Below, piece after piece: positions 17,980 through 21,684 of a stretch of DNA of 26,649 bases; positions within the stretch are counted from its first letter, which is position 1, and every line of letters starts with the position of its first letter. The stretch is from a virus (lineage: Duplodnaviria; Heunggongvirae; Uroviricota; Caudoviricetes). A model generated the notes under the pieces. It was given only the letters and a program-made list of their open reading frames with translations, had not been told where the DNA came from and made no database searches. A program made the position numbers and the translations under genes. The stretch spans positions 1 to 26,649 of the IMG/VR virus record IMGVR_UViG_3300037418_002962; one strand, written 5' to 3'.

Positions 17980-19023
17980 TTATTTAGAAAAGTAGTCTAC
18001 CCAAATTTTTTCTGATTCTCTATTATACTTTTCAAGACCCTTGAGAGAACGGTTCAGCCATGGACAATTTTTTGACATCCAATATGCTCTTTTCATTTTA
18101 CAAAGGATATCAATAGGATCTGTTGGATCAGCATGGAGAAGATTTTCATTCCAGAAAATTTCAGAAGAGGTTACAACGGGAATTCCTTGTGCTAGGAAAT
18201 CGGCTGTACATATATTAAATGTCTCGCTGAAGGACACTTGCATACCGAGATCTAATTTAGCAATGATTTCGTGATAATTCGGATTCCACTCATGTTCAAC
18301 AAGATTAAAATCCTTGAATGGCTCAAAGAGTGCTCTAAGATTTTTTAGAATTGGTGAACCACCACCTTCAATCCTGGTAGCATTGATATGGAAATTCATT
18401 GGCTTCCCTACCCATCTGGCAAAATCGATAGCAGCAATGGCTTGCATTAGATGATTCTTTAAAGGTCTGATTGCTCCAAAACATCCAATATCAATGACAG
18501 GTCCAGAAAATTTATTTTTCTGCATTTTAACCTTGTCAATTGGGTAATAATTTGGTAGATATGTTACGTTTCTTGGATAACCGAATTTTGCCTCAGATAG
18601 CATTGCCATTTGCTCTGCTGCTCTTGGGGCATTCGAAGCAACAATCACGTTATCATATGCAAGATATTTTAATGTCCATTCCATTGCAATTCCCTCATTG
18701 GCGAGGAAGGGAATTTCAGAATGGTTACGAATAACCCATTTAACTTTTGGTAATACTCTCTTTAGTTCCGCAAATTTTTCTGCAACAACCCAATAAGCTT
18801 CAACAATAACAATATTTGCTCCAAATTCTACAACTTCTTTATGAATTTTATTATTATCTGCACAATGAACCAACTTGCTTTCGATTCCATTTTTGTTTAG
18901 CATATCACACATGAACCTTGCAGAATTATAAAGTCCACTGTGTAGAGGAATTCCTGAATAGGAATAATCATTACACCAAGAATTTTCGCGATACTTTAAA
19001 ACAAATAGAACCTTATTAGCCAT
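17980..19023 (-). CDS. GT-B fold glycosyltransferase (GT4-like)
   Basis: IGCFGAIRPLKN, DLGMQVSFSETFNICTAD, GIPVVTS; GAGG RBS. Confidence 0.82.
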   Translation of the reverse strand: MANKVLFVLKYRENSWCNDYSYSGIPLHSGLYNSARFMCDMLNKNGIESKLVHCADNNKIHKEVVEFGANIVIVEAYWVVAEKFAELKRVLPKVKWVIRNHSEIPFLANEGIAMEWTLKYLAYDNVIVASNAPRAAEQMAMLSEAKFGYPRNVTYLPNYYPIDKVKMQKNKFSGPVIDIGCFGAIRPLKNHLMQAIAAIDFARWVGKPMNFHINATRIEGGGSPILKNLRALFEPFKDFNLVEHEWNPNYHEIIAKLDLGMQVSFSETFNICTADFLAQGIPVVTSSEIFWNENLLHADPTDPIDILCKMKRAYWMSKNCPWLNRSLKGLEKYNRESEKIWVDYFSK

Positions 19024-19039
19024 TAAAACAACCTCACTT

Positions 19040-19077
19040 AAAAAATGGAAGCCACAGAAAAATATTCCATGGCTTCC
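19040..19077 (-). terminator. intrinsic terminator-like hairpin in the glycosyltransferase leader
   Basis: GGAAGCCAUGGAA/UUCUGUGGCUUCC 13-bp stem (2 G-U) followed by AUUUUUU. Confidence 0.65.
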
Positions 19078-19133
19078 GGGTTCATCCTCGCCATTAAGCC
19101 ATTATTTGTTTTATTATTAGAGGCTTACAGAGA

Positions 19134-19141
19134 TATTTATA
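19134..19141 (-). promoter_or_regulatory. T4-type late promoter
   Basis: TATAAATA. Confidence 0.7.
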
Positions 19142-19158
19142 ATTCCTTGAAATAGCTA

Positions 19159-19187
19159 TTGACATTTCTTTAAGAATAAATTATGAT
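19159..19187 (+). promoter_or_regulatory. sigma70-type promoter
   Basis: TTGACA-17 bp-TATGAT. Confidence 0.75.
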
Positions 19188-19197
19188 ATTTTTGTGG

Positions 19198-19205
19198 TAT
19201 AAATA
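19198..19205 (+). promoter_or_regulatory. T4-type late promoter
   Basis: TATAAATA. Confidence 0.7.
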
Positions 19206-19214
19206 ATTTACTTA

Positions 19215-19276
19215 TTTGACTCTGAGTTGCGGGGTGGAGCAGTCTGGTAGCTCGTTGCAACTCAGAGCCAGATTTT
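19215..19276 (+). ncRNA. hairpin RNA containing the 5' ~30 nt of an initiator tRNA-Met (not a complete tRNA)
   Basis: TGCGGGGTGGAGCAGTCTGGTAGCTCGTTG enclosed by the perfect stem CTCTGAGTTGC/GCAACTCAGAG; no anticodon, T-arm or CCA follows. Confidence 0.6.
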
Positions 19277-19297
19277 CACTATAAGAAAGTTTAAACA

Positions 19298-19588
19298 ATG
19301 AATATAAATGAACGTCAAAAATGGTTCAATGACAATAAAGAATTTTTCATTGATGGATATCTTACTCAAAGATATTTAAATGGTGATATTCCAGATTATT
19401 CTCTTAACAAGAAGGAAACTAAAATGAATTATGCCCCTTATTCTGAGGAACAGTTAAAGGAACGTGAAAAGTCCATGACAATTGTTCCAGAACTTGAATA
19501 TATTTGTAAATCTTGCAATGATACTGGTGTTATCACCAGAGAAGGCAAGGAATATGCCTGTAAAAATTGCAAGATTTATGAAGACTGA
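19298..19588 (+). CDS. hypothetical protein with C-terminal zinc finger
   Basis: CKSC...CKNC; an internal AAGGA-ATG (MNYAPY) may be the real start. Confidence 0.55.
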   Translation: MNINERQKWFNDNKEFFIDGYLTQRYLNGDIPDYSLNKKETKMNYAPYSEEQLKEREKSMTIVPELEYICKSCNDTGVITREGKEYACKNCKIYED

Positions 19589-19590
19589 GA

Positions 19591-19827
19591 ATGCATAACG
19601 GAATTGATGAAAATTCCCCATTAGAAACACGGGTTACACCATGGAAACTTCTTTGGTGGGAAGATCCAACTTATTCTCATGTTAGAATTTGGGCCAAGAA
19701 TACTCAGTTCGGAGTTTTTCAAAGGCATGAATGGAAATATTATGATGGTACTACTTTTATGGAACAGTGGATTCCAAGTATTAAGGCATGGCCTGTAGGT
19801 GCAAAGAAGGTAGAAAATGATGAGTAG
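19591..19827 (+). CDS. hypothetical protein
   Basis: Packed plus-strand ORF. Confidence 0.6.
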   Translation: MHNGIDENSPLETRVTPWKLLWWEDPTYSHVRIWAKNTQFGVFQRHEWKYYDGTTFMEQWIPSIKAWPVGAKKVENDE

Positions 19828-19999
19828 AGAATTAATATTGTGTGATAGATGTAAAGGTGATGGTAAAATTTATTGGGATGAACTTGTAGATTATCATAAA
19901 GGTTTATATGATTACCATTCTAAGGAATGTGATTTTTGTGAGGGTAAGGGAAGAGTTTATAAAATCACAACAATTACTTATGAAAAAATGAAAGATTGA
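19817..19999 (+). CDS. DnaJ-like zinc-finger protein
   Basis: CDRCKGDG and CDFCEGKG. Confidence 0.7.
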   Translation: MMSRELILCDRCKGDGKIYWDELVDYHKGLYDYHSKECDFCEGKGRVYKITTITYEKMKD

Positions 20000-20781
20000 T
20001 TATGCACTGGATTTTACAAGATACTTTCCAGAATGAGCCAGAGCAGCAGGAAATGATTGAAATCCTGGAGAAGCTTGATATCCCTTATTCTGTCCATAAG
20101 GTTGTTCCGTTCGTTGGTGAACTTATTCCAACTCCAGATCTTACTACAAATAATGTAGTCTGTTTTGGTTCGTATTCCATGAGGCGTGTTGCAAAAGAGT
20201 ACGGATGGACTCCAGGTGTATTTGATCTTTTTGAGCATAACTTCCTGAAGCAGAAAGAGCATTGGAGAAAGCTTATGTTGAATTATGATTCAAAGGTCTA
20301 TCCTTTCAAGGATGTGCCAGAATTTTATTCCCCATATTTTATCCGTCCTATTGAGGATACGAAATATTTTGCAGGCAAGCTTTTCAATCCTGATGAGTTT
20401 CAGGAGTGGCAACATAACGTTTGTGAGCTTAAACTTGATTATGGGAATTCTCTGAAGCCAGAAACATTAGTGCAGGTTTCAAAGCCAAAGGAAATTTATT
20501 CAGAGTACCGTTTCTGGATTGTTAATGGTAAGATCGTAACTGCTTCACTTTATAAAAGAGGTAGTAGAATTATCTATGATTCAGAGGTTGGTGAAAAATT
20601 TCATGATTTTGTTAGGATGGCAATTAATATCTGGCAACCTGACAAAGCTTTTGTGATTGATGTTTGTGATACTCCAGAAGGACTAAGGATTGTTGAAATC
20701 AACACCATCAATGCATCTGGATATTATGCTGCAGATATCTACAAGCTTGTAGAGGCTTTTGAAAGGAACTTTAATGAATAA
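19996..20781 (+). CDS. ATP-grasp domain protein, R2K clade (DUF4343-like)
   Basis: FIRP...K.F.G, EYRFWIVNGKIV, FVIDV...IVEINTINASG. Confidence 0.85.
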   Translation: MIMHWILQDTFQNEPEQQEMIEILEKLDIPYSVHKVVPFVGELIPTPDLTTNNVVCFGSYSMRRVAKEYGWTPGVFDLFEHNFLKQKEHWRKLMLNYDSKVYPFKDVPEFYSPYFIRPIEDTKYFAGKLFNPDEFQEWQHNVCELKLDYGNSLKPETLVQVSKPKEIYSEYRFWIVNGKIVTASLYKRGSRIIYDSEVGEKFHDFVRMAINIWQPDKAFVIDVCDTPEGLRIVEINTINASGYYAADIYKLVEAFERNFNE

Positions 20782-21616
20782 TTTCTTTACATTTATATCC
20801 TTTATATTGGTTTACTTTGCCGTTTGCAACTCTATACATGTGACCACTATGTAAATTATTTTCCCGACAAAATTGTTTCATATTAGTTACAATAAACGGA
20901 GAACTATCAAAATAAGTAAATTCGTATATTTTACAAACTTTTTCTAACTTAAATCCCATAGTTTGGGACCTAGGAACTCCTTCTTCTTTATACCATATTA
21001 ACCAGTTTTCAGTTGATCCTTTAGAAATCCTTCCAGATGTTAATTTTAAACTTATTGTACAATAAGATATTTTATGTTCTTTACAAAATTTCTCTAAGCT
21101 TCCATTAACTTCATATTCTATACCATCAGGAGATTTTAAACAAATTATTTTTGCAGAAGGATTGTTTTCACCACATACTAAGGGATTATCTAATCGCCAT
21201 GCACTAATCTTTGCTTTTGTTTCTGGAGTTCTATGTTTTCCATATAAGTAATGATTTTCTCCTGTTTTTTGGAATTTTGATGGTCCTATTCCGCCATCTA
21301 ATCCATTTTCAAGAATTAAATTTGCCCACTCTTCTGATTCGGCAATATTATTCTCTTCCGAGAAATTTATAGCGAATTCTGTTAAAGATTTTTCATCAAT
21401 AAAAAGTTCATACCATAAAGTTGTAATATCACTACCATGAATTTTTAGATGTCTTTTCCAATATTTACCTGAACCTTTGTATTTTATTGGATCTTTTTTG
21501 GTTGTTTTGCCAAAATATTTTAGGCCAGTGATATTGTGTTGTTTTATATAAAGATAAGTAGGTATAAAATCAGAATTGTTGGCATTTGCGTTTTCAGATG
21601 TTAAATAAATATCCAT
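20771..21616 (-). CDS. GIY-YIG (Seg-like) homing endonuclease with NUMOD3-like and repeated HTH domains
   Basis: YLYIKQHNITGLKYFGKT, YKGSGKYW, YGKHRTPETKAKIS; start placed at ATG 21616 (MDIY). Confidence 0.88.
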   Translation of the reverse strand: MDIYLTSENANANNSDFIPTYLYIKQHNITGLKYFGKTTKKDPIKYKGSGKYWKRHLKIHGSDITTLWYELFIDEKSLTEFAINFSEENNIAESEEWANLILENGLDGGIGPSKFQKTGENHYLYGKHRTPETKAKISAWRLDNPLVCGENNPSAKIICLKSPDGIEYEVNGSLEKFCKEHKISYCTISLKLTSGRISKGSTENWLIWYKEEGVPRSQTMGFKLEKVCKIYEFTYFDSSPFIVTNMKQFCRENNLHSGHMYRVANGKVNQYKGYKCKEIIH

Positions 21617-21684
21617 TGTGAGAACTCCCTTAAAGTTTTTACCGTGGTTGGATGCTTCAACATCACGAACCACAAATATTTATA
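21605..21684 (-). promoter_or_regulatory. late promoter TATAAATA plus structured leader of GIY-YIG gene, copy 2
   Basis: Homologous to 9227-9306 with compensatory base changes. Confidence 0.8.

Follow-up and report, generated by a model that had tools for sequence, protein, structure and literature searches.

The question raised by this locus is whether a hairpin that carries the first part of a bacterial initiator tRNA-Met (tRNA-fMet), set behind phage promoters, represents a new kind of RNA or the remains of a gene. We analysed it in a window of 26,649 nucleotides, the whole stretch of DNA under study, taken from the start (first 26.6 kb) of an IMG/VR virus record of 243,684 bp that is 97%-complete. 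The record contains T4-type core genes (gp46/SbcC-like, UvsW and DNA ligase) and the phage genome is T4-like; the identity of its gp46 to that of any cultured phage is only about 41%. We conclude that an ordinary relic of a gene, and not a novel type of RNA, is the most likely explanation of the hairpin.

An initiator tRNA-Met 5' part in the window

We found that positions 19228-19257 on the plus strand correspond to nt 1-30 of an initiator tRNA-Met gene, comprising the 5' strand of the acceptor stem, the whole D-arm with its A11:U24 pair and the first 4 nt of the anticodon stem. A preliminary description of this DNA had called the stretch a near-match to tRNA-fMet; the likeness is stronger than that, since it is identical at 30/30 positions to natural bacterial tRNA-fMet genes having U1 and U28. 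Such a match cannot have arisen by chance in 26.6 kb. When one genome per bacterial species was scanned for exact copies of a 26-mer from inside the island at least 120 stretches were returned, and those extracted were, among the matches listed, tRNA-fMet genes from many phyla. The full 30-mer was matched by 12 retrieved loci, 10 of which are from Acidobacteriota among the matches listed, and the loci that in addition end in GCAAC-CA (n = 9) are, again among the matches listed, all from Acidobacteriota.

Of the features that mark an initiator, the 5' half with an A11:U24 D-stem pair is thus present at 19228-19257, and the CAU anticodon with three consecutive G-C pairs is absent; no tRNA-fMet anticodon loop was found here or elsewhere in the genome. 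ARAGORN predicted 0 tRNA genes in the window, and Rfam RF00005 gave no match in 18000-20500 even at E up to 10, while the same tRNA model detects ten tRNA or tRNA-like genes elsewhere in the genome. A search around the site with all Rfam families, at E up to 10, returned noise only. In the single 'sRNA' Rfam match near the site, the aligned part of the Staphylococcus model is its tRNA-fMet tail, and the match was rejected.

A C1xA72 mismatch is the usual hallmark of bacterial initiators. The initiator tRNA genes of nine Acidobacteriota loci (L015, L039, L047, L053, L068, L095, L117, L120 and L131) have instead U1 and A72, which form a Watson-Crick 1:72 pair. That the phage relic is of this U1/A72 type hints that the host may belong to the Acidobacteriota, despite the phage GC content of 32%. 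Two further loci, L037 and L127, from Acidobacteriota and Nitrospirae MAGs, hold tRNA-fMet genes that depart from the tRNA sequence within the anticodon loop, which is consistent with interruption by an intron.

Promoters and folding of the hairpin

The preliminary description had placed both a late-promoter box and a sigma70 promoter upstream of the hairpin, and we found both. A near-consensus sigma70-type (early) promoter, TTGACA-17-TATGAT, lies at 19159-19187 on the plus strand; it matches at 11/12 positions and is the best site in 18000-21000. The T4-type late-promoter box TATAAATA follows as an exact match at 19198-19205 on the same strand, one of 45 such sites in the genome.

Separately, three copies of a ~65-nt structured leader were seen outside the window, at G000 about 157453, 184704 and 197357 (plus strand). 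Each lies directly behind a TATAAATA-like box and leads into a ribosome-binding site; its two variable hairpins are enclosed by a closing stem and by 5' and 3' motifs, all of them conserved. These leaders had no Rfam match.

The hairpin itself is a perfect 11-bp inverted repeat, 19220-19230 with 19257-19267, that pairs with a probability of at least 0.995 and closes a 26-nt loop. Its outer 8 bp join the 5' leader arm of the cassette stem (19220-19227, plus strand) to the 3' trailer arm (19260-19267, plus strand), in which CCA is not encoded, and its inner 3 pairs belong to the acceptor stem. Beyond the 11 bp, 5 more pairs (one of them G-U) can form across an A/C mismatch, and the extended stem is followed by a run of four T (19273-19276, plus strand) that may serve as a weak terminator or an attenuator tail. 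The 11-bp stem, its extension to 16 with one mismatch and the short U-run all lie where the preliminary description had put them. A scan for the terminator consensus did not call the hairpin, as its loop of 26 nt exceeds 8 nt and it has only 4 T, although the extended stem abuts the T-run.

The RNA folds at -28.2 kcal/mol (z = -3.6), a value reached by 0/200 shuffles, and no other of the 45 TATAAATA sites in the genome is followed by a fold as stable, their median being -8.8 kcal/mol. The D-stem was said to sit on top of the long helix as its apical structure. We found that the D-stem, 19237-19240 with 19250-19253, pairs with a probability of only about 0.23-0.29, and that the structure containing it lies about 5.5 kcal/mol above the MFE structure. 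According to the folding model the D-stem would be a minority conformer, and thermodynamics do not favour display of the D-arm.

These values bear on whether the locus could encode a functional tRNA-derived small RNA under selection, which might work as a decoy, drawing off a toxin or enzyme that recognises the acceptor or D-arm of the initiator, or as a 5' regulatory element that uses the D-loop. Two good promoters, the stability of the fold relative to all others behind TATAAATA, and the lack of substitutions in the 30 nt and the stem would fit such an RNA; the low pairing probability of the D-stem would not. The anticodon stem-loop of tRNA-fMet is the site cut by VapC-type toxins and is read by MetRS, and it is this part that is missing here. 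Furthermore, an uninterrupted helix encloses U1-A72, which thereby differs from the 1:72 feature that formyltransferase reads.

The junction and the missing 3' half

After nt 30 the window reads C-A-A-C, whereas natural genes continue with the rest of the anticodon stem. Together with G19257, which is common to nt 30 and to the motif, these bases give GCAAC (19257-19261, plus strand). This equals tRNA nt 70-74, that is the 3' acceptor end, the discriminator and C74, as judged from natural full-match genes with a GCAAC-CA end and from the tRNA of a relative, L133, which aligns here. In the hairpin, the true acceptor pairs 1:72, 2:71 and 3:70 make up the inner 3 bp, and in the outer 8 bp the 5' leader is paired to discriminator and trailer. 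Since nt 30 runs straight into GCAAC, the 3' acceptor end of the tRNA, a deletion is the simplest reading. Its register is ambiguous, nt 30 being joined to nt 70 or equally to C75-A76 plus the trailer; ~40 nt of the interior are gone either way.

Exact searches of IMG/VR returned 0 matches for the junction 33-mer and 0 for the leader plus 5' end, and the junction pattern had 0 matches in JGI metagenome contigs. The leader plus 5' end had 25 matches in JGI metagenomes, 24 of them ordinary bacterial tRNA-fMet genes (GC 0.44-0.67) and one non-tRNA; this shared leader is no evidence of capture because a 5-nt leader was required in the pattern. An intact tRNA-fMet with the identical 5' half was matched 5 times in IMG/VR, and none of these came from relatives of the phage (four were GC-rich and four lay at or near contig ends). 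Within the genome the 30-mer and the stem arms are single copy. The structure occurs in one genome only, so that neither decay nor selection is measurable, and the lack of a second example in IMG/VR or in the JGI metagenomes speaks further against a selected small RNA.

A single metagenome-derived record could also be in error. A real phage with an intact tRNA-fMet might have lost about 40 nt to an assembler that skipped them, and bacterial tRNA-fMet genes with exactly this 5' part are abundant and able to tangle assembly graphs. However, the two sides of the junction have just 1 nt in common and no repeated k-mer that could cause a skip, both flanks (leader and trailer) look phage-like and occur once, and 19 kb separate the site from the end of the contig. 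We hold an assembly artefact to be very improbable.

The preliminary description also considered the hairpin as one piece of a split tRNA, and looking for the missing anticodon and T-arm part and for a full tRNA-fMet in the genome brought up neither. None of the ten tRNA or tRNA-like genes of this 97%-complete genome is a tRNA-Met, and a fuzzy search of the genome with the 3' portion of natural full-match tRNA-fMet found only the T-arms of other tRNAs. With no 3' half in a genome of this completeness, joining in trans to a half encoded elsewhere is not supported. The split tRNA genes of Nanoarchaeum have a 5' piece followed by a helix-forming sequence with a complementary partner, and are broken after nt 37. 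Our locus resembles them in having a 5' piece, intact to nt 30 and with promoters of its own, followed by a helix-forming sequence. In contrast to them, the partner of that sequence is its own leader and not another locus, the break falls at nt 30, inside the anticodon stem, and neither a tRNA-fMet anticodon nor a T-arm piece exists in the genome. A split tRNA is thus extremely unlikely.

tRNA cassettes elsewhere in the genome

Leader and trailer were compared for every tRNA or tRNA-like gene of the genome (n = 10, scattered). We found that the acceptor stem of the tRNA-Arg gene (189155-189231, minus strand) is prolonged by 10 bp of perfect leader-trailer pairing, and that of the tRNA-Asn gene (194200-194273, plus strand) by 13 bp, also perfect. 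CCA is encoded in neither, and a T-run follows the first extension and T-rich sequence the second. In the remaining 8 genes CCA is encoded and the extension is 0-1 bp. The hairpin likewise has a leader paired with the discriminator and trailer, no CCA and a T-run; with 8 bp of extension it belongs to the same class as the tRNA-Arg and tRNA-Asn cassettes, the T-run of the Arg cassette being longer than the hairpin's four T. The tRNA-Asn gene lies just behind TATAAATA, and the tRNA-like gene at 60367 lies directly behind TTGACA-17-TATAAATA. On sequence grounds, the promoters, outer stem and T-run of the hairpin appear to be an ordinary tRNA cassette shell whose cargo has been gutted.

The preliminary description had also offered a tRNA gene destroyed by template-switch inversion. 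The destroyed gene we retain; in place of the inversion, an internal deletion in a pre-existing leader-trailer stem fits better. If synthesis had stopped near nt 30 and the leader had been copied backwards, the fold-back would have yielded an exact 11-bp inverted repeat as its automatic product, and the outcome would still be a dead tRNA gene. Such an event is unnecessary, however, because leader-trailer stems of 10 and 13 bp exist around intact tRNAs of this genome. Moreover, the pairing beyond the 11 bp, with its A/C mismatch and G-U pair, is imperfect and resembles the evolved stem of the Arg cassette, and the bases after the junction equal the true tRNA 3' end. We regard a template switch as unlikely.

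The tRNA-Arg and tRNA-Asn cassettes, both outside the window, carry an identical 6-nt flank beside the tRNA, and in both the helix continues through the discriminator. Their leader-trailer helix is an unusual pre-tRNA design, and a cassette that holds a tRNA inside a long leader-trailer helix doubling as a terminator may deserve study itself. The genome also has aberrant tRNA-like genes at G000 27701-27795, 60367-60437 and 202717-202788, for two of which ARAGORN reports a 2-base 'anticodon', reflecting odd anticodon loops. The T-loop of one Gly-like gene is non-canonical, and only Rfam detected this gene; the tRNA-Cys is 89 nt long.

The locus in related phages

The divergent neighbour of the hairpin, an ORF of 347 aa at 17980-19023 on the minus strand, is glycosyltransferase-like, with homologues in glycosyltransferase Pfam families, and served as a synteny anchor. 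Among 5.8 billion proteins three relatives exceed 60% identity to it, and the closest ones (P0002 to P0004) were traced to contigs L132 to L135. In L133 and L134, which come from two independent samples, the glycosyltransferase is 70% identical; divergent from its gene are TTGACA-16-TATAAATA, 5 nt, an intact 76-nt tRNA(CAU) and a small ORF. The identical promoter pair is kept in L135 (63%), a contig that ends at the TATAAATA box, and the promoter block is also kept in L132 (69%), which is rearranged immediately after it. TTGACAT is conserved in L132, L133 and L135. On alignment the promoter block is conserved, and the 3' end motif of the window is aligned with the 3' end of the L133 tRNA.

The D-stem of the L133 tRNA has a pyrimidine11:purine24 pair, which indicates an elongator Met or lysidine-Ile type and not an initiator. 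CAU tRNAs of these types are common in T4-like phages (PMC1524935). The locus thus appears to be a conserved slot for a tRNA, filled differently in different relatives and, in the window, apparently by a broken initiator type; the L133 tRNA and the relic may be different occupants of the slot rather than orthologues.

An intact tRNA(CAU) at the slot in a relative, together with a hairpin unique to this record, is the combination that the preliminary description itself had named as speaking against its proposal. That proposal, a dedicated small RNA that displays the D-arm as a decoy, as a dock for a T-loop or as a source of tRNA halves, finds no support, the hairpin being unique, the D-stem a minority conformer and the anticodon loop absent. 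That a relative keeps a whole tRNA at the slot also speaks against a selected tRNA-derived small RNA, and we consider such an RNA quite unlikely.

On the other side of the slot the first downstream ORF, 96 aa at 19298-19588 on the plus strand, has zero homologues apart from itself among 5.8 billion proteins. Relatives were sought in IMG/VR through two downstream genes and none were found, and blastn of 18700-19800 against 50,697 phage records gave no match. As the first downstream gene is an ORFan, the tRNA slot borders a plastic, variable region. Plastic regions of this kind are known in T4-type genomes (PMC2839356, PMC4122927). A link to the nearby homing endonuclease (20771-21673) was dropped, as its tblastn matches were weak, partial and without tRNA context.

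The minus-strand leader of the glycosyltransferase-like gene has a structure of its own, a 13-bp hairpin with a T-run at 19047-19077, between a minus-strand TATAAATA (19134-19141) and the start of the gene. L132 and L135 have a hairpin at the matching position with a completely different sequence, so it is the structure that is conserved and not the sequence.

Discussion

We think it likely that the hairpin is the relic of a phage-borne initiator tRNA-Met gene whose interior has been deleted. The ancestral cassette would have consisted, in order, of an early and then a late promoter, a leader complementary to the trailer and thereby lengthening the acceptor stem, a CCA-less tRNA and a T-run. 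An internal deletion of ~39 nt (about nt 31-69) would have joined nt 30 to nt 70, removing the anticodon loop, the variable loop, the T-arm and most of the 3' acceptor strand. What was left over would be 3 acceptor and 8 leader-trailer pairs closing a 26-nt loop with the D-arm sequence. The anatomy, the analogues within the genome, the intact tRNA of a relative and the uniqueness of the junction are observations; from them we infer the deletion event itself.

After such a deletion the tRNA function would be gone, both promoters would still fire and the stem would form the 5' end of the transcript of the ORFan block. For that downstream block the stem now probably acts as a 5' stabilising stem, or as a partial terminator or attenuator. 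The 30 nt without a substitution and the perfect arms fit a very recent deletion and are equally compatible with selection on the RNA. The deletion product might have been selected as an early and late small RNA, its loop presenting the acceptor and D-arm of the host initiator and thereby titrating or misleading a host factor or defence protein, or seeding pairing with the 3' strand of the host tRNA; we judge this distinctly improbable.

The putative gutted tRNA-fMet gene can be set beside several known arrangements. The initiator tRNA gene at the head of the E. coli metY-nusA-infB operon leads an mRNA. In both cases a promoter, a tRNA-fMet sequence and a terminator-like element precede protein genes on the same strand. 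The likeness is one of arrangement: unlike metY, our locus has only part of the tRNA, and phage ORFans lie downstream.

For T4-like phage genomes, lists have been given of predicted tRNA pseudogenes and of early promoters located 5' of tRNA genes (Nolan et al. 2006, PMC1524935). Our locus shares with these pseudogenes a non-functional tRNA-derived sequence, variable tRNA content and promoters directly upstream. It differs from them in having one clean internal deletion within a perfect expression cassette, with the 30 nt undiverged.

PeSL promoter/stem-loop cassettes occur in hyperplastic regions of T4-type genomes (Arbiol et al. 2010, PMC2839356; Comeau et al. 2014, PMC4122927). They are a repeated motif family in which the stem-loop lies upstream of a sigma70 promoter and terminates upstream transcription (PMC2839356). 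A near-consensus sigma70 promoter with a stable stem-loop, intergenic and beside ORFans and indels, is common to both. However, the hairpin studied here lies downstream of its promoters, its arms are single-copy in the genome and it is derived from a tRNA, which sets it apart from PeSL.

A bearing on phage counter-measures to tRNA-directed defences would arise only if the RNA were functional. As a relic the hairpin matters little in itself; it is a record of how tRNA genes come and go at one fixed promoter slot, in large T4-like phages of a clade that has been poorly sampled. Its 30 nt and 3' motif are of a type found, among the matches listed, only in initiator tRNAs of Acidobacteriota, and as such they offer a cheap clue to the host of an uncultured phage.
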